Sequence record: MZ152915.1 | Reading direction: 5' to 3' (one strand) | Source of the DNA: Staphylococcus phage SeAlphi | DNA length: 18,292 nucleotides | Shown here: in pieces, positions 1,977 to 18,292 of the stretch | How the letters are laid out: the number at the start of each line of letters is the position of its first letter | How positions within the stretch are numbered: position 1 is the first letter of the stretch | Notes under the pieces: generated by a model | What the model saw: only the letters and a program-made list of their open reading frames with translations | What the model was told of the DNA's origin: nothing | Databases searched by the model: none | Program-made: the position numbers and the translations under genes

Positions 1977-2984
1977 ATGAGTTATTTAGATAACGATTAC
2001 ATCGGAAAAAATAAAGATGTTGGTTTAAAAGTTGAATTGACTGAAGATATTGACCGACGAATAATGGAACATAGGAACCGTTTTCGTCGGTTAATTTTTA
2101 ATCGTTACGTTGAATTTTTACCCCTACTTATCAATTATACAAATCAAAATTCAGTTGGCATTGATTTCTTACAACTTGAAATTGCTTTAAGACAGGGTTT
2201 TCAAGTTGTAGTTGGTAAAGCAAGAAATGGTGTCATTATGATATTAGGTTATATCCAATCAATGTATTATAAAAATAGTAACGATTTTATAAATAACTTC
2301 AATTTAACTTTTAATAAGAGATTAACTCAAGATGACATCACATTTATTATTCCTGATTATTTAAGACCTGATTATGCTTTAGAAATTGAATATTATGATA
2401 ACTGCCAAAGTGGTGACTTTATTGTATTAAGAAATAAACCCGTCAATTTAAATAATGATTATCAGATTATCGAACATTATTGTGATGAATTAGCTGAAAT
2501 TATATTATCTCGCTTTTCACTTATTATGCAGTCTAAATTTAGTAAAATATTTTTATCTGATATTCAAGATGAAACGATTAATCATTTTATTAATAAATTG
2601 TATAATGGTGCACCTTTTATTAAGACAGATAAATACATTGACCCTGAAGAAGATATTATTGACTTGGGTAGTGATTTTGTCACAACTGCTTTAGTTGAAA
2701 TGAAACGAGAATATCAAAATAAAGTCAGTGAGTTAAGTAATTTCTTAGGTGTCAACTCACTTGCAGTTGATAAAGAAAGTGGTGTGAGTGATACGGAAGC
2801 TAAATCCAATCGTTCATTTACTACATCAAATAGTAATATTTATTTAAGAGGTAGAAACCCTTTTGAAATGTTAAATCGTCGTTTTAATTTGGATATTCAC
2901 CCTTACTATGATGATGAAGCTATTTCTGAAATGGATATTATGAATTTAAAGACTGATAATTTTGGTGGTGGAAAAGTTGAGTAA
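1977..2984 (+). CDS. Portal / upper collar (connector) protein
   Basis: 335 aa with an AAAGGAGGA RBS, directly downstream of the MCP. Size is similar to phi29 gp10 (309 aa). Called from synteny only. Confidence 0.5.
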   Translation: MSYLDNDYIGKNKDVGLKVELTEDIDRRIMEHRNRFRRLIFNRYVEFLPLLINYTNQNSVGIDFLQLEIALRQGFQVVVGKARNGVIMILGYIQSMYYKNSNDFINNFNLTFNKRLTQDDITFIIPDYLRPDYALEIEYYDNCQSGDFIVLRNKPVNLNNDYQIIEHYCDELAEIILSRFSLIMQSKFSKIFLSDIQDETINHFINKLYNGAPFIKTDKYIDPEEDIIDLGSDFVTTALVEMKREYQNKVSELSNFLGVNSLAVDKESGVSDTEAKSNRSFTTSNSNIYLRGRNPFEMLNRRFNLDIHPYYDDEAISEMDIMNLKTDNFGGGKVE

Positions 2985-3813
2985 ACACACAACGACGTTA
3001 TATGAAATTATTGAAAGTGAATTACAACGTTTAGGGTTAAATGAATTTGTTAATAATGATAGAATCCACTTTAATGATTCAAAACATGCATTTATGCAAA
3101 AGATGTTGTATTTTGATGATGATGTTAAACAAATTGTTGATCATATGTTTTTTAAAGGTTTCATGTTTAATGATGAACGCATTGACCGATATTTTAAAGA
3201 AAGTTTTACATTGCGTTTTTTATATAGAGAAATTGGTAGACAAACGGTAGAATCGTTTGCAAGTCAAGTTTTATATATCACCATGACACATGAAGATTAT
3301 ATATATCGTGTCTATGGTTCAGATATGTATAAATACATTGAACAAGTAACAGACACACAGTCTACTGATATTGGTAAAGCATTAGAAAATGCAATCGAAC
3401 AAGGTCAAACGAAAGACAGACAACAAGACAAAGGTCATGAAGAATATAAAGACTATGAAGATACAATCACAAAAAGTTTTGATGATAATCGCACTGCAGA
3501 ATCTACCCTACCACAGTCAAAAGTTAATATTGATGTAGATAATACAGTGCTTGATTATGCAGACACAAACACGATTTCAAGAGATAAAAATACAAGTGAA
3601 ACAGTATCAGAAAAAACAGGTACAAAAGATAATACGTTTGATTCATTAAGAAACGGTGAAAGTGATACGAAACGTAATACACAATCACAAAATGAAATGA
3701 ATCGAACAGGATTAACAAAACAATACTTAATAGATAACTTACAAAAGTTATATTCAATGCGTGATACAATATTTAAAACATATGATAAAGAATGTTTTTT
3801 ACACATATGGTAG
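2962..3813 (+). CDS. Lower collar protein (phi29 gp11-like)
   Basis: 283 aa, overlapping the end of the portal gene. It uses a non-ATG start (TTG or GTG at 2962..2977) and the first in-frame ATG is 45 codons in. It has a long polar Ser/Thr/Asp/Lys-rich C-terminal tail consistent with the tube-forming hairpins of lower collar proteins. Confidence 0.45.
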   Translation: MVVEKLSKHTTTLYEIIESELQRLGLNEFVNNDRIHFNDSKHAFMQKMLYFDDDVKQIVDHMFFKGFMFNDERIDRYFKESFTLRFLYREIGRQTVESFASQVLYITMTHEDYIYRVYGSDMYKYIEQVTDTQSTDIGKALENAIEQGQTKDRQQDKGHEEYKDYEDTITKSFDDNRTAESTLPQSKVNIDVDNTVLDYADTNTISRDKNTSETVSEKTGTKDNTFDSLRNGESDTKRNTQSQNEMNRTGLTKQYLIDNLQKLYSMRDTIFKTYDKECFLHIW

Positions 3814-5706: not shown

Positions 5707-6465
5707 ATGGTAAAAATTACTAAAAATTTAAGTTACAACAATAATTATTACAGAGAACGTAATTCAAAACTGTATATTACAATTCATGAAACAGCAAATC
5801 GAAGTGTTGGTGCAAATGCAAACGCTCATGCTAATTTCATAAATAATGGTTCACAGGAAACATGGCATTATACCGTCGATGATACACATGCAGTTCAACA
5901 CTTTTATCACACAACTTCTTGTTGGCATGCAGGGACATATAATGGTAATACGCAATCCATTGGTATTGAAATGTGTATCAATAGTGACGGAAATTATAAA
6001 AAGACATTACAAAATACAATTGAATTAGTTAAAAAAATTATGAAACAAGAAAATATTACTGCAAGTCACGTTGTTCAACATCATTTTTGGAGTGGTAAAA
6101 ACTGTCCTACTCTATTACGTGAGGGTACACATGGTATGACATGGAATGATTTTATTTTAAACATTAAAGGTCAATCAACACGTAAAAAACCTAAAGGTTG
6201 GAGTGAAAATCGTTATGGGACTTACTATAAAAAAGTTGATAAAACATTTATTGTAGGTTCAGAAAAAATTGAAACACGAATTGGTTCACCTTTCTTATCT
6301 GCACCAAGTGGAGGACACGTTAAACCAAAACAAAAAATGACCTTTGACTATTTAGCACAACAAGATGGTTATGAATGGGGACAACTTGAAAATAATAGAG
6401 GACAACAAGAATTTGTACCAATTCGACCATTAAGTCAAAAAGAATATTGGGGTATTTTAAAATAG
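5707..6465 (+). CDS. Endolysin: N-acetylmuramoyl-L-alanine amidase (Amidase_2/PGRP fold) with C-terminal SH3b (SH3_5) cell-wall-binding domain
   Basis: N-terminal half carries Amidase_2 hallmarks (ITIHETAN..., WHAG, SIGIE, H..WSGKNCP zinc/PGRP signature). The C-terminal 90 aa, GW..N.YGT.YKK...GSPF...P..G......DY..QQDGY.WGQ...GQQ.FVPIRP, matches the lysostaphin-type SH3b pattern. It has its own AGGAGGA RBS. Confidence 0.9.
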   Translation: MVKITKNLSYNNNYYRERNSKLYITIHETANRSVGANANAHANFINNGSQETWHYTVDDTHAVQHFYHTTSCWHAGTYNGNTQSIGIEMCINSDGNYKKTLQNTIELVKKIMKQENITASHVVQHHFWSGKNCPTLLREGTHGMTWNDFILNIKGQSTRKKPKGWSENRYGTYYKKVDKTFIVGSEKIETRIGSPFLSAPSGGHVKPKQKMTFDYLAQQDGYEWGQLENNRGQQEFVPIRPLSQKEYWGILK

Positions 6466-11069: not shown

Positions 11070-11107
11070 AAAAAAAGACGCTACTATCATGTAGCGTCAT
11101 TTTTTAT
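11070..11107. terminator. Bidirectional rho-independent terminator at the convergence of the late (+) and early (-) operons
   Basis: A7 run, then stem GACGCTAC (11077..11084) pairing with GTAGCGTC (11091..11098) around a TATCAT loop, then ATTTTTTAT. It is symmetric, so it terminates both strands. The DNA polymerase stop codon sits in the loop. Confidence 0.75.
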
Positions 11108-13378
11108 ATCTTGATGAACCATATATAAAATATTAATATCACATTTATTTTTAATTTCAAATTGATAAGGAAATAGATCACTAAATGAAAATGCGCCAAC
11201 ATCACTTTCAATGTATAATATATCATCGTCATTGACATCATCATATTCACGTCTTGCTTGTTTTAATACATCTTCTTTTCTATCCTCTAATTCTTTAGTG
11301 AAATAATAATCATAAGGCGTACCTTTTTCAATATATGTTTTTGACGGGTAAATAGATATTGTTTTTTGTTCGTTATAAATGGATTTATTGTTATACACAA
11401 TTGCTTTATGGTGAAAATCATTTTTAATAAAATTTTCAAAAGATTGATTCTTATTAAATGCGTCTAATGGAATACCTGCACTGGCAATTTTAATTGTGTT
11501 ATCTTCTTTTTGGTAGGCGTACTTTTTATGATTGAGTACATACATTTTTTTAATGACATGATTTTCTATATCCCACTTACCTAATGCAATAGGGTCAAAT
11601 AATTCATCATTTAATTTATGTTTAATTTTTGATTTTAAATATAAACTGTCAGTATCACAATATATAAAGCAGTCATCTATTTCAGATTGTGTTAGAGACT
11701 TTAATGGTTCAAGTAAATTATAAAGGGCTTGTGATGTCACAAAAGTAGAAAATAATAAATTACGTTCACTGTTTTTATATCCATTTTCATGGTTAACTAA
11801 AAAACCGTCCTCATCACGTCTAAACAAATTAAAATGTGACCGTAAAGCAGGTATACCATACAGACCATTTAAAACAACTTTACTTAACATGATTTCTTCT
11901 TTTGAATAAGTATGTGTATTGACTTCATCAGTGATCGTGTAATTATAGGGTGAATCCATAATGATTTTTTTATCTAATTTACCTTGCGTTTTGATGAAAT
12001 AATTATGATGAATAATATCACGAGCGCCAAAGTATTCACATTCATAGCACACAAAAGCAAACACTTTTATTTTGTCAAAAGTTAAACCCGTTAAATCTTC
12101 AATCATGCGTAAAGTGTTTGTATTTATATTAACAAACTTTTTGTCATTATTGTAGTATTTAACAAGACATTGCTTAATTAAATCACTTTCAATATTTCTT
12201 AAAATAGTACGATTAAATGTGACCTTATCCATTTTATAAAGTGAAAAATAATCTTTATTGGTTAAATCAATGTGTATCGTTGTCGGTTGTTCATATTCAT
12301 CAAAATCATAAATATACATCGGTAATTTTTCATGATACATCACATAGGGATAACTACTATTTATGTCTATTGAAAAACATTCCTCATTGATGATTTTATC
12401 AACATAACGTGAATTATACATATTTAATCCACCACGATAGAAACCCTTAATAAAGTCATAAAAATTCATATCAAAAAAAGTAAAATCTGTGTATGATATT
12501 TTTTGCTTTCCTTTTTGGTTTAATAATTGTAAGCGTGTTGTTTCATTATTGATATAACTTTTCATAATATTAACACTAAAGGTCATTGCACTATAATCAA
12601 AATTAGGGAATATATCACTATAATGTATGTGGCACATACCTAAAATAATGACATCGTTTCTAATATAGGTCATTTGTGATTCTGTAAGTTGATGAAAACA
12701 TTCATATGCATAATCATAGGCTTGTGTATCTGTCATATCATGTTCTACATCAAACACATCATATTGAAAATCAGTTTTTAATTCATCTTCACTAATATAG
12801 CCACCGTCTTTGAGCTTTTTACCTAATGTAGCGATTGATGTATTTGTTTTCATAAAATTATCTATAATATTAAATTTAAATCCTTTTAAATACATCATTA
12901 AATCTAAATTGATACTTGATTTAACACGTTTTTCTAATATAACATTGGTTTCTTTAGATAATAATTTTGCTTCATTCATATTAATTGTGTTTGAATTATC
13001 ATCAGCACTTTTCATATATAAATTTTCAATAATCAGATCATCACTGAAAAAATGTTGTGTATCGTGTAGTAAAAAGTGATTATCATATTTATTACAGTTA
13101 TGTGCTATCATGTTGATTGTCGTTTTTGATTTAGTGATGGTGTCACGTCTTTTTGCATAATCAAAAAAAGATTGATAAAATGCTTTAAAACTAGGAAAAA
13201 CTTCAACATCAATATGTTGTCCGTCATACCAACCAATAGCAAGACTATAAGTCACATTTTTATATTTAGTTGGTTTTTCTCTTCCTGCTACCTTATTATA
13301 GTTTAATGTTTCAATATCCCAATAAAGATATAAATTTTTTTGACCTTTATGTTTTTGCATTGCTTCTAATAATCCCAT
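11087..13378 (-). CDS. Protein-primed family-B DNA polymerase (phi29 gp2-like)
   Basis: 763 aa. Exo I is WDIET, Exo II is AHNCNKYDNHF and Exo III is YIRNDVIIL. Motif A is DINSSYPYVMY, motif B (Kx3NSxYG) is KVVLNGLYG, motif C is YCDTDSLY, and KxY-like is LGKWDIE. These closely parallel phi29 polymerase motifs (YIKNDIQII, DVNSLYPAQMY, KLMLNSLYG, YCDTDSIH). RBS is AGAGGTG. Confidence 0.95.
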   Translation of the reverse strand: MGLLEAMQKHKGQKNLYLYWDIETLNYNKVAGREKPTKYKNVTYSLAIGWYDGQHIDVEVFPSFKAFYQSFFDYAKRRDTITKSKTTINMIAHNCNKYDNHFLLHDTQHFFSDDLIIENLYMKSADDNSNTINMNEAKLLSKETNVILEKRVKSSINLDLMMYLKGFKFNIIDNFMKTNTSIATLGKKLKDGGYISEDELKTDFQYDVFDVEHDMTDTQAYDYAYECFHQLTESQMTYIRNDVIILGMCHIHYSDIFPNFDYSAMTFSVNIMKSYINNETTRLQLLNQKGKQKISYTDFTFFDMNFYDFIKGFYRGGLNMYNSRYVDKIINEECFSIDINSSYPYVMYHEKLPMYIYDFDEYEQPTTIHIDLTNKDYFSLYKMDKVTFNRTILRNIESDLIKQCLVKYYNNDKKFVNINTNTLRMIEDLTGLTFDKIKVFAFVCYECEYFGARDIIHHNYFIKTQGKLDKKIIMDSPYNYTITDEVNTHTYSKEEIMLSKVVLNGLYGIPALRSHFNLFRRDEDGFLVNHENGYKNSERNLLFSTFVTSQALYNLLEPLKSLTQSEIDDCFIYCDTDSLYLKSKIKHKLNDELFDPIALGKWDIENHVIKKMYVLNHKKYAYQKEDNTIKIASAGIPLDAFNKNQSFENFIKNDFHHKAIVYNNKSIYNEQKTISIYPSKTYIEKGTPYDYYFTKELEDRKEDVLKQARREYDDVNDDDILYIESDVGAFSFSDLFPYQFEIKNKCDINILYMVHQDIKNDAT

Positions 13379-13402: not shown

Positions 13403-13431
13403 ATTATATCATAAAAAAAGCAATATGTAAA
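13403..13431 (-). promoter_or_regulatory. Sigma-A-type promoter for the DNA polymerase gene (TTTACA-N17-TATAAT with TG extension), minus strand
   Basis: Minus-strand reading is TTTACAtattgctttttttaTGaTATAAT. The -35 lies at 13426..13431 and the -10 at 13403..13408. The -35 sits within the 3' arm of the hairpin that follows the ATPase gene. Confidence 0.5.
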
Positions 13432-13446
13432 AACTTTACACATTGC
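13420..13446 (-). terminator. Hairpin overlapping the packaging ATPase stop codon (attenuator)
   Basis: Minus-strand GCAATGTGTAAA-gttt-TTACATATTGC forms an 11 of 12 bp stem, followed by a U7 run. Confidence 0.4.
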
Positions 13447-14695
13447 TTATAAATGATTTTACTAGATTTTTTTTAGTTCTTTCAATGTAGTTATCATGAT
13501 ACATTTTTTCTTTTTGTTCAAAAGGTTGATAACCTTTTTTGTTACGTTCTGTTTTTAAATGATACTTTATAATCTTGTTCATGTTTAAATGAATAAAATC
13601 GTCCTCATTGAGTATAAATGATTTACTGTATGCATTATCAAAATGAAGATTTGAGGGGTTATAATAACGCCTTTGATGATTATCTTTATAAAATGATTCT
13701 TTTAAAAATAATGCACCATGTTCAACATCTGATACATCAGTACAAAACTGGTAATTTTCGGAATAGGGTACAACTTTAATATTCGTTTGATAATCATTTA
13801 AGTTATACATCACTTTAATATAATTATAGGGTGTTTTGATATGGAAAAAGTTTCCATTACTTGATATGTGCGCCCTCAAATAATCATCTGCTAAATTAAA
13901 TGTATTAAAATCAAATTCACCTGTTGTCATAGAATCATCATCAGTATTAAATGCACGTGTGTTACGATTCTCATTAGAAAATTCATTTCTTCTCATCTCA
14001 AGCATGATATTACTATACTGACGTTTGCTATTCATACCAAATTTTGAGTGATGTTGTAATTGTTCATAAATATTTAAGTTTGCGAGTAGTGGACTAGAAA
14101 AGTTTACTGCATTTCCTAGTAATACAATTTTAGGTATTTTGATATATTCAATATTACCATGGTTACGATCAATACTTTCATATATGGTTTTCAACTTTTC
14201 CCACTCATCTATGAGGTAATCGCTTTCTAATGCTAAAAACTCATCATAAATAATGATAGGAAAATTCTTCATAAAGTTAGAATGATATTTTAAATCGGTT
14301 GCATTATTAAGGTGAGTAATAATACCAATTTCTTTATCACCATAACCCACTGCAATATAATCTTGCGTATTTCTAAAAAATAAATCTTTATCATTAAAAT
14401 GTTTTTGTTCAATACATATTCTTTCAAGTAATTCACGATAAGCGTCACGCAATGTATGATGTCTTGCTAGTAAAGTAAACTTAATATCTAAATCAATAGC
14501 TAACTTCATAAAAAATGCAACATAGTTAAATGTTTTACCGTCTGAACGGTTGGATATGGAAATTAAAAAATCAATATCTAAATTCATTAAGTCATCTGCA
14601 AGTTCAATTTGGTTATATTGTTTGGGAATAGAACGTCTAAACTTAGTGACAAAATTTTGATAGTCTTTGACTTCATTTAATCGTGACTTTTTCAT
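13436..14695 (-). CDS. DNA encapsidation (packaging) ATPase, phi29 gp16-like
   Basis: 419 aa with an AAGGAGG RBS. A deviant Walker A is present near the N-terminus (SNRSDGKT) and a Walker B about 100 aa later (IIIYDEF). It is adjacent to the polymerase gene, as in staphylococcal picoviruses. Confidence 0.65.
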   Translation of the reverse strand: MKKSRLNEVKDYQNFVTKFRRSIPKQYNQIELADDLMNLDIDFLISISNRSDGKTFNYVAFFMKLAIDLDIKFTLLARHHTLRDAYRELLERICIEQKHFNDKDLFFRNTQDYIAVGYGDKEIGIITHLNNATDLKYHSNFMKNFPIIIYDEFLALESDYLIDEWEKLKTIYESIDRNHGNIEYIKIPKIVLLGNAVNFSSPLLANLNIYEQLQHHSKFGMNSKRQYSNIMLEMRRNEFSNENRNTRAFNTDDDSMTTGEFDFNTFNLADDYLRAHISSNGNFFHIKTPYNYIKVMYNLNDYQTNIKVVPYSENYQFCTDVSDVEHGALFLKESFYKDNHQRRYYNPSNLHFDNAYSKSFILNEDDFIHLNMNKIIKYHLKTERNKKGYQPFEQKEKMYHDNYIERTKKNLVKSFISNV

Positions 14696-15267: not shown

Positions 15268-16497
15268 TCAATCAAAATTTTTATGATATGTTTCTGCAAT
15301 GCGATAATACATCATTTCATGACCCCATTTTGTTGGGTGTAAACCGTCTTTCATAGACGATTGTCTAAATTTTTCATCATAAGGATTGATTAATGAATCT
15401 TCATAAGCGTTATATAAGGCTAATCCTAAATCTTTAGTTGCTTTCACTTGTGAATCAACATAAGTTTTTAATGTATAACCTTTTTTATTCTTATCTGTAT
15501 CACGTCTTATAACTTTTCCTGTATCATCAATTTTAGCTTGTTTCGTTGGTGTAATTACAACGATTTTAGCTTTTGAGTTATTTTCTTTAACCGTATCTAC
15601 AACCTTATAAAATGCACCGATATATGTTTTTGTATCAGTAAGTTTATTACCTACTTCAACACCTGCATTTGAATTAAACAACCAATCATCATCAGTACCC
15701 TGTATAATCACGAGTTCATTATCTTTGAGTTGTTTAGCTTGATTTAATATATTATTGTCTTTAACTTCACTCATTGTAGCACTGCTTACTGATAAGTTTT
15801 GAATTTTTGCACCTGTTTTTTCTTTGATGTAATCACCAAAGTTATATGAAGCATGCGCGCCTTTACCCACACTGTCACCAATGATTCCAACAGATTTAAC
15901 ATATTGTATTGATGAAACGGGTGTATAATCTTTCATTACTGTACCATTTAATGTTTTAATGGTTCTCACTTTTGGTGTATGTTCTTCTGGTGGTAGGGGT
16001 TTTGTATCAGGTTTCTTATTTGGTGGTGTCACGTCTTGTTCTGTTTTATGTGGGTATGTTCCACTCGCTTTATTATGTGGGTAAATATGCTTATTCTGAT
16101 TAGCTTCATATTCAAATTGATGATACATATATTCATCAATGAGTTGTCCGTCTTTATAAATCAATATATGTGAATCATCATCATTAATTAACCAAATATC
16201 TGATGTTGTATTTAAAAATAATAAATCCTTAATAGCAATATTTTGATGTTCACGATAATTTCCGTACATATCTTTCTCTAGGAAATAGTCAATCGGTGTA
16301 TTTAATGTGATTTCAATTTCTTCTATAACATTAAATAAATCATTTTTGTTTATAATATAGGTTTCTACTACTGCACTATGGTCAAATATTACATATGAAC
16401 CATTATTTGAGTGAAACTTTTCAGATGTTACACCATTACGCCACGCCCAATCAACCAATTCATTTAAATGTAATTTCATTTGATGTTTAATTATCAA
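15268..16497 (-). CDS. Two-domain protein: unknown N-terminal domain, Pro/Lys-rich linker, C-terminal SGNH/GDSL-family hydrolase (esterase/acylhydrolase)
   Basis: The C-terminal domain has SGNH block I (GIIGDSVGKG, nucleophile Ser in GDS), a central QGTDDDW block and block V (DGLHPT, the catalytic Asp-x-x-His). The linker is PPNKKPDTKPLPPEEHTPK. The probable start is the in-frame TTG at 16497, 8 nt after GTGAGGG, whereas the ORF track extends to the GTG at 16512. Confidence 0.6.
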   Translation of the reverse strand: MIIKHQMKLHLNELVDWAWRNGVTSEKFHSNNGSYVIFDHSAVVETYIINKNDLFNVIEEIEITLNTPIDYFLEKDMYGNYREHQNIAIKDLLFLNTTSDIWLINDDDSHILIYKDGQLIDEYMYHQFEYEANQNKHIYPHNKASGTYPHKTEQDVTPPNKKPDTKPLPPEEHTPKVRTIKTLNGTVMKDYTPVSSIQYVKSVGIIGDSVGKGAHASYNFGDYIKEKTGAKIQNLSVSSATMSEVKDNNILNQAKQLKDNELVIIQGTDDDWLFNSNAGVEVGNKLTDTKTYIGAFYKVVDTVKENNSKAKIVVITPTKQAKIDDTGKVIRRDTDKNKKGYTLKTYVDSQVKATKDLGLALYNAYEDSLINPYDEKFRQSSMKDGLHPTKWGHEMMYYRIAETYHKNFD

Positions 16498-16732
16498 AAT
16501 ATTTTCCCTCACTTTCTAAATCATTAAGAATATGCGTAATTTCAAATAAAGCATTTTCTAATTTATCTCTTTGTTCTTTTGTTAAATCGTAATCATTGAG
16601 AGCGTTAACAATATTATAATATGCTTTAATCAAATTCATGTAATCACTCCTTTTATAATTAACGATTGAAACAAGTATTAAAGCAATTATACCATATAAA
16701 CATAATCCTATTGTAACGATTGTACCAAACAT
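16487..16732 (-). CDS. Small membrane-anchored early protein (N-terminal TM helix + helical cytosolic domain), phi29 p16.7/p1-like role possible
   Basis: 81 aa. The N-terminal FGTIVTIGLCLYGIIALILVSIV is a clear single TM segment, followed by a K/R flank and a predicted helical acidic domain. It is translationally coupled to the downstream SGNH gene. Confidence 0.5.
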   Translation of the reverse strand: MFGTIVTIGLCLYGIIALILVSIVNYKRSDYMNLIKAYYNIVNALNDYDLTKEQRDKLENALFEITHILNDLESEGKYFDN

Positions 16733-18129: not shown

Positions 18130-18161
18130 TATTTTTTTGAAAAAAATTTACATTACATATT
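18130..18161. repeat. Sub-terminal conserved block, right copy (inverted copy of 144..174)
   Basis: The reverse complement reads ATATGTAATGTAAATTTTTTTcAAAAAAAT. It lies 17 nt inboard of the right ITR. Confidence 0.7.
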
Positions 18162-18292
18162 TAATAGAAATAATGATCGTTTATTATTCATAATCCATAG
18201 TAAAATTTAAATGTATTTTTTAATTAACCTTTCACTCAAAATTTTTGTCGCTACGCGATCTAATTCACTCGCTAATATCGTATGCCGTCTTA

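Follow-up and report, generated by a model that had tools for sequence, protein, structure and literature searches.

In this study, the open reading frame at positions 15268 to 16497 on the minus strand of Staphylococcus phage SeAlphi (sequence record MZ152915.1) was investigated within the window, by which we mean the whole 18,292-bp stretch that was analysed. We conclude that this gene is the ortholog of gp6 of the Staphylococcus epidermidis phage Andhra, and that it very probably encodes a tail protein in which a module that anchors the receptor-binding proteins (RBPs) is joined to a tethered, SGNH-fold esterase module likely acting from outside the cell. The finding is real but already known, as the architecture and the location of gp6 have been published. 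What is new here is the predicted Ser239/Asp269 variant of the oxyanion hole, the existence of natural relatives that carry the same RBP without the esterase, and a probable remote homolog of the anchor at the syntenic position in P68-type phages. Staphylococcal picoviruses are therapy candidates against S. epidermidis device infections, and picovirus tail enzymes, which influence host range, could become anti-biofilm reagents.

Orthology with the Andhra RBP anchor

The search of known structures matched PDB 8egr_K over residues 1-409 of the 409 amino acids (aa), at E 1.2e-265, and phrog_33778, described as 'virion structural protein', was matched at E 1e-278. Identity to Andhra gp6 is 96% overall; the anchor domain alone is 91.6% identical and the esterase domain 97.9%. 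Mass spectrometry showed the Andhra protein to be plentiful in virions after purification (61/62 normalised spectra; Hawkins et al. 2022, PMC9710869); it is present as six asymmetric dimers, 12 copies per virion, and was named 'RBP anchor' (PMC9710869). These dimers sit between the twelve trimers of the RBP and gp16, the protein of the tail stem, holding the RBPs in place, and residues 1-143, which form two small alpha/beta subdomains, were built into the cryo-electron microscopy (cryo-EM) map (PMC9710869). [quoted passage not shown] Of the three roles that an earlier note on this DNA had offered, the one that holds is a virion protein made from the opposite strand, given that the ortholog occurs in Andhra virions in 12 copies; its remark that phage esterases of the SGNH family are usually structural was also correct.

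The minus-strand open frame extends from a GTG at 16512 through the stop codon at 15268-15270, with the TTG start at 16497-16495. In Andhra, the cryo-EM density puts the true start of gp6 at a TTG that precedes the annotated ATG by six codons (PMC9710869), and this is the same start that the earlier note had chosen. Searched as DNA, the reading frame had matches in 20 Staphylococcus phage records, of which 18 cover 80% or more of its length at 93-99% nucleotide identity, the best being vB_ScaM-V1SC05 (99.0%), with Andhra at 95.2%. The frame is not a chance one because it is conserved at full length and at this identity in 18 phage records, and the full-length matches are all ~18-kb Andhra-like picoviruses (Rountreeviridae, Andhravirus) save one 26-kb record that is probably misassembled. 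In the S-CoN_Ph34 record, which at 25,977 bp is ~8 kb too long, a frameshift in the linker splits gp6 and leaves a 170-aa product; the cause is probably an error in assembly or sequencing and not biology.

The layout given in the earlier note, a domain, a linker and a second domain, holds, with an N-terminal part of 143 aa, a Thr/Pro/Lys-rich segment and a C-terminal SGNH domain. The reading frame and the three SGNH blocks (GDSVGKG at aa 207-213, QGTDDDW at 266-272 and DGLHPT at 384-389) were likewise found where that note had placed them. Residues 144-200 are rich in Thr (16%), Pro (16%) and Lys (12%), and the linker of gp6 is not resolved in the Andhra cryo-EM map (PMC9710869). Neither a signal peptide nor a membrane segment was found in the 409-aa protein (maximum 19-residue hydropathy 0.88). 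The AlphaFold model of the N-terminal 143 aa reached a predicted local distance difference test score (pLDDT) of 86.4, and its only fold matches in PDB were 8egr_L (E 2e-21) and 8egr_K (E 8e-21), so the structure prediction that the earlier note had proposed for this domain returned the anchor fold. No Pfam family matches the N-terminal 143 aa, and a Pfam scan of 11 anchor-domain homologs gave chance-level matches only. The domain is nevertheless not 'unknown', as the earlier note had called it, since its structure has been solved as the RBP anchor (8EGR chains K and L).

The SGNH domain and its likely action

The C-terminal 235 residues were modelled by AlphaFold from a 34-sequence alignment at pLDDT 96.6, with a three-layer alpha/beta/alpha fold. 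Pfam PF13472 (Lipase_GDSL_2) matches aa 206-394 at E 6e-9, with 37.1 bits against a curated cut-off of 32.9, while PF00657 stays below its own (20.3 against 23.6). Foldseek found 90 PDB matches at E<=0.001; among the 50 listed, all are GDSL/SGNH-type proteins or carbohydrate esterases or lipases. The best of them (7bxd, 3dc7 and 3bzw) have TM-scores of 0.66-0.84, those of 7bxd and 3dc7 being 0.75-0.84, and further fold matches include Axe2, rhamnogalacturonan acetylesterase (RGAE), CE2 enzymes and the peptidoglycan O-acetylesterase Ape1. Thus the assignment of the C-terminal domain to SGNH/GDSL in the earlier note was borne out, both the profile search with Lipase_GDSL_2 and the structure prediction it had recommended supporting the SGNH fold. 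A search on the function of 7BXD yielded no substrate clue from the closest solved folds.

For the active site, counts refer to 34 aligned homologs of 23-61% identity from several Firmicute genera, and the equivalence of the catalytic residues comes from alignments. All of them carry Ser209 and His387, and 33/34 have Asp or Glu at position 384, a conservation that argues for a working triad of Ser209, His387 and Asp384. At the block II position, 29/34 homologs have Gly and only the four Andhra-like sequences have Ser; at the block III position Asp occurs in 32/34, including 80alpha Tal, and Asn in the two most distant. The block II Gly donates a backbone NH, and Ser there may be tolerated. Since the block II Gly and the block III Asn are both absent, we file the domain as an atypical member, with the SGNH fold, the Pfam assignment Lipase_GDSL_2 and a variant oxyanion hole, and not as a canonical SGNH enzyme.

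We propose that the N-terminal gp6 dimers clamp the RBPs to the stem, as has been shown for the Andhra ortholog, while twelve flexible Thr/Pro/Lys linkers would tether the SGNH domains (aa ~177-409) outside the RBPs and at the distal stem, a placement suggested by the sequence, the fold and the published rigid-body fit. The SGNH domain most likely acts outside the cell during adsorption, with the Ser209-Asp384-His387 triad. As a putative esterase it would take an ester-linked acyl group off a polymer of the staphylococcal envelope, and this removal could ease wall penetration by the tail-tip lysin gp10. Candidate substrates are the O-acetyl group on peptidoglycan N-acetylmuramic acid, ester substituents of teichoic acid, and O-acyl groups on the matrix of polysaccharide intercellular adhesin/poly-N-acetylglucosamine (PIA/PNAG). 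A glycan-borne acyl group appears more likely than a lipid one, because the characterised fold neighbours of the model are carbohydrate deacetylases.

Several points weigh against this account. The structural and proteomic evidence all comes from the Andhra ortholog and none of it from the present isolate; even in Andhra, the C-terminal domain of gp6 was only fitted as a rigid body into weak density (PMC9710869). No esterase activity has been reported for Andhra gp6 or 80alpha Tal, and for the latter it was stated as not established (PMC7048315). Two of the four residues that give SGNH its name are replaced (Ser239 and Asp269), so catalytic competence is not guaranteed, and the timing of expression is not readable from the sequence.

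The off-canon residues Ser239 and Asp269 would also suit an inactive SGNH-like domain, one that binds carbohydrate or is purely structural and would sit on the RBPs as a decoration, such as a secondary adhesin. Such a role would agree with the packing of the domain on the RBP periphery and tail stem of Andhra, with the lack of reported activity for the module or 80alpha Tal, and with the natural variants that do without the module. Nevertheless, we consider it unlikely: the invariance of Ser209 and His387 across the 34 homologs, with Asp/Glu384 nearly so, fits a working triad and not a binding module, and an Asp269 kept in 32/34 points to a functional, subfamily-specific active site and not to decay. 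The earlier note had also suggested that the protein remodels wall teichoic acid or peptidoglycan O-acetyl groups from inside the cell, for superinfection exclusion or lysis priming. This is very unlikely, because the protein, lacking both a signal peptide and a transmembrane segment, has no way to the wall before lysis, and its ortholog is a stoichiometric tail component of 12 copies. A pool of free protein would meet the wall after holin and endolysin act, which speaks for such remodelling, as does the location of the gene on the replication-gene arm, but that arm encodes other virion and packaging proteins too. Nothing supports the third role, that of a lipid acylhydrolase at a membrane-bound replication site, beyond the generic name 'GDSL lipase' and an adjacent small membrane protein; with carbohydrate acetylesterases and not lipases as the nearest characterised folds, an ortholog located in the virion tail, and homologous modules that all lie in tail or baseplate gene clusters, we regard it as extremely improbable.

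For an esterase that acts from the virion on the outside of the cell, a more specific function can be imagined. The 'GTDD' subfamily of SGNH proteins might be specialised for an acyl group of positive charge, namely the D-alanyl esters of teichoic acids, in which case gp6 and 80alpha Tal would be virion-borne teichoic-acid de-D-alanylases and not O-acetyl esterases. We consider this unlikely; it is a speculation from one conserved residue, the Asp269 position, together with host distribution. Asp stands in place of the oxyanion-hole Asn in 32/34 tail-associated homologs, from phages of Staphylococcus, Enterococcus, Bacillus, Leuconostoc, Lactiplantibacillus and Lactococcus. If it were true, the receptor polymer would be unmasked or re-charged before penetration.

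Relatives of the two modules

The esterase module matches residues 394-630 of the 80alpha Tal protein gp59 (E 1.3e-57, 43% identity), and its identity to tail and baseplate proteins of siphoviruses, Tal included, is about 43-49%. Membership of the protein as a whole in Tal was considered and rejected, since the Pfam scan showed no Prophage_tail (PF06605) hub, the N-terminus has the anchor fold and the genome is that of a podovirus; what the two have in common is the C-terminal module alone. Outside the Andhra-like group, 225 phage records match the module at less than 60% identity (27-49% among the matches listed); nearly all are staphylococcal, and most are labelled minor structural, tail or similar. 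The module was also observed in ~340-aa prophage proteins of Staphylococcus, Enterococcus, Bacillus, Leuconostoc and Lactiplantibacillus, and in S. pseudintermedius prophages the proteins that contain it are 347 aa long and placed between Tal and a baseplate protein of BppU-like type.

Within the Andhra-like phages, the distribution in the available genomes indicates that the esterase module is an optional accessory, because anchor-only relatives keep an Andhra-type RBP. S-CoN_Ph32 has a gp6 of 152 aa (L003 2036-2494; L numbers are our labels for loci outside the window) with the terminal-protein gene directly after it, and PT1-9 has one of 129 aa (L004 1730-2119); no sequence resembling the esterase domain was found anywhere in these two genomes. 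Compared with the window, the RBP of S-CoN_Ph32 is 92.6% identical, its stem 95% and its anchor 80%, and in PT1-9 the RBP is 72.6% and the anchor 55% identical. Anchor-only proteins of 122-152 aa were noticed on several ~17-18-kb metagenomic contigs as well, and there is a second full-length lineage of gp6 whose esterase domain is only 60% identical.

The anchor domain has relatives of its own: its aa 1-120 hit phrog_467 at E 1.4e-18, a family to which phage 96 ORF035 is matched at E 4e-44. A further 154 staphylococcal phage records carry stand-alone proteins of the phrog_467 type at 27-37% identity. In phage 96 and StauST398-3 these genes lie amid small, non-structural genes between the DnaB helicase and dUTPase/Rin activators, and in SEP1 the gene lies within a run of hypothetical genes, in a myovirus accessory region. 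The siphoviruses that have the stand-alone gene (phage 96 and StauST398-3) also carry the esterase module on Tal; the anchor and the esterase are separate genes there, and gp6 therefore combines two modules. A 2025 paper labels one siphovirus protein of the phrog_467 type 'putative RBP anchor subunit', apparently by similarity only. The anchor fold may have been recruited from such small early-region proteins of originally non-structural role, which is the weaker of the two speculative readings given in this study.

In P68-type phages, a gene for 133-136 aa occupies the syntenic position, namely P68 ORF6 (L008 1708-2118) and Pabna_06 (L011 1857-2258), and for gp6 the table of the Andhra paper gives no counterpart in P68 (PMC9710869). 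Comparison of P68 ORF6 with the anchor gave E 0.008 with high bias in hmmsearch, and a probability of 53% with E 1e-4 in hhalign. Foldseek against BFVD matched the anchor to the Pabna ortholog of P68 ORF6 at E 8e-6. The sequence comparisons leave P68 ORF6 a possible remote homolog of the anchor, which the fold match makes a probable one.

Genome setting, expression and comparison with known systems

The window is a complete genome of an Andhra-like staphylococcal picovirus, with two convergent gene arms and a G+C content of ~30%; it is an Andhravirus genome whose gene order and inverted terminal repeats are as in Andhra, and its orientation is reversed relative to the Andhra record. Gene-by-gene tblastn recovered homologs of the Andhra genes in the same order at 85-99% protein identity, with the endolysin as the sole exception. 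The window endolysin at 5707-6465 (+), of 252 aa with Amidase_2 and SH3_5, shares 29% identity over 78 aa with Andhra gp14, being mostly unrelated to it, and 52% with the PT1-9 endolysin; it looks like a lysin cassette swapped within an otherwise 85-99% identical genome. The inverted terminal repeats (39-172 and 18133-18266) are 134 nucleotides (nt) long and 92% complementary, and begin 38 and 26 nt inside the window ends, leaving outer segments at 1-38 and 18267-18292. The true genome termini may be missing or misassembled, because these outermost bases are mutually unmatched and the left end is unusually C-rich.

The order gp5, gp6, terminal protein gp7, packaging ATPase and polymerase is kept in the window as in Andhra, and the coordinates are collected in the table below. 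The neighbours of the gene are as the earlier note had described them, with an 81-aa protein upstream that has one strongly hydrophobic helix (mean Kyte-Doolittle value over 19 residues, 2.7) and a basic protein of 167 aa downstream. The latter had been called basic and DNA-binding-like, of which the basic character stands (isoelectric point 8.5), whereas the Andhra paper lists this protein, gp7, as the 5' terminal protein (PMC9710869).

Table. Coordinates of the features discussed, in the window unless a locus label is given
Feature	Position	Strand	Basis or remark
Complete coding sequence, 409 aa and stop, TTG start, Andhra gp6 ortholog	15268..16497	-	Reading frame list, sequence, Andhra match
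Shine-Dalgarno sequence GAGGG	16506..16510	-	8 nt upstream of TTG; falls in the upstream gene (gp5 homolog), at its 3' end
N-terminal RBP-anchor domain, aa 1-143, with WAW (WxW) helix motif at aa 17-19	16069..16497	-	Andhra identity, model
Flexible Thr/Pro/Lys-rich linker, ~aa 144-176	15970..16068	-	Composition; confident C-terminal model begins at ~aa 177
C-terminal SGNH-fold esterase-like domain, aa 177-409	15271..15969	-	Pfam PF13472, AlphaFold, Foldseek
Block I, G207-D208-S209, Ser209 predicted nucleophile	15871..15879	-	Invariant in 34/34 homologs
Block II, N234-L-S-V-S-S239, Ser239 for canonical oxyanion-hole Gly	15781..15798	-	Aligns with Gly of 7bxd
Block III, G267-T-D269-D270, Asp269 for canonical Asn	15688..15699	-	Aligns with N of GTND (3bzw) and GVND (3dc7)
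Block V, D384-G-L-H387, predicted catalytic Asp and His	15337..15348	-	His in 34/34; position 384 Asp/Glu in 33/34
DNA polymerase	11087-13378	-	Same strand as the 15268-16497 frame
Packaging ATPase (gp8 in Andhra)	13436-14695	-	Same strand as the 15268-16497 frame
Receptor-binding protein, gp15 homolog, 609 aa	3826..5655	+	97.0% identical to Andhra gp15; Pfam Beta_helix; structural partner that the anchor holds
Tail stem / lower collar protein, gp16 homolog	2962..3813	+	98.9% identical to Andhra gp16; second anchor partner
Stand-alone phrog_467 gene (phage 96 ORF035)	L005 3992-4384
Stand-alone phrog_467 gene	L006 4001-4408
Stand-alone phrog_467 gene	L007 2992-3402

The earlier note had framed the gene as an enzyme of an early replication operon, and this framing found no support. 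In Andhra, gp1 (tail tip protein), gp7 (terminal protein) and gp8 (packaging ATPase) lie on one arm with gp6 (PMC9710869); since virion and packaging genes share the arm, neither the strand nor the co-orientation with the polymerase indicates timing. A consensus promoter scan of the minus-strand arm gave 57 sites against 59.6 expected from shuffles, which is no excess, and a literature search for a staphylococcal picovirus transcriptome found none. The only convincing signal in the promoter and terminator scan was a bidirectional terminator-like hairpin at 11077-11098 (8 bp with 5 G-C pairs, and T-runs on both strands), at the junction of the convergent arms, where it overlaps the final codons of the polymerase gene. 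A hairpin at 13403-13448 (-) with a 14-bp stem, a short way upstream of the DNA polymerase gene, overlaps the best promoter-like site of the strand (TTTACA-17-TATAAT, with extended TG) and might serve as a point of regulation within the arm.

Among the known systems, Andhra gp6 ('RBP anchor; hydrolase', PDB 8EGR chains K/L, PMC9710869) is the closest, with the same genomic position, the same 409 aa and the same TTG start, and with partners that are alike (RBP 97% and tail stem 99% identical); the difference consists of strain-level substitutions only, mostly in the anchor domain. The phrog_467 proteins (phage 96 ORF035, StauST398-3_0028 and SEP1_120) share 27-37% identity with aa 1-120 and are stand-alone proteins of ~130 aa, which, unlike gp6, have neither linker nor esterase. 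The 80alpha Tal protein (gp59, PDB 6V8I, PMC7048315) shares the SGNH subfamily, the unusual GTDD of block III and the tail-borne position of the module. In Tal the module is mounted at the tip of the baseplate, on a trimeric, gp27-like hub, while the one described here is borne by a dimeric RBP-anchor domain; the block II residue is Gly in Tal, where the gp6 homolog of the window has Ser. Canonical esterases such as Axe2, rhamnogalacturonan acetylesterase and Ape1 have in common with it the alpha/beta/alpha fold, the Ser of block I and the Asp-x-x-His of block V, but they are only 12-16% identical, and their block II Gly and block III Asn correspond to Ser239 and Asp269 here.

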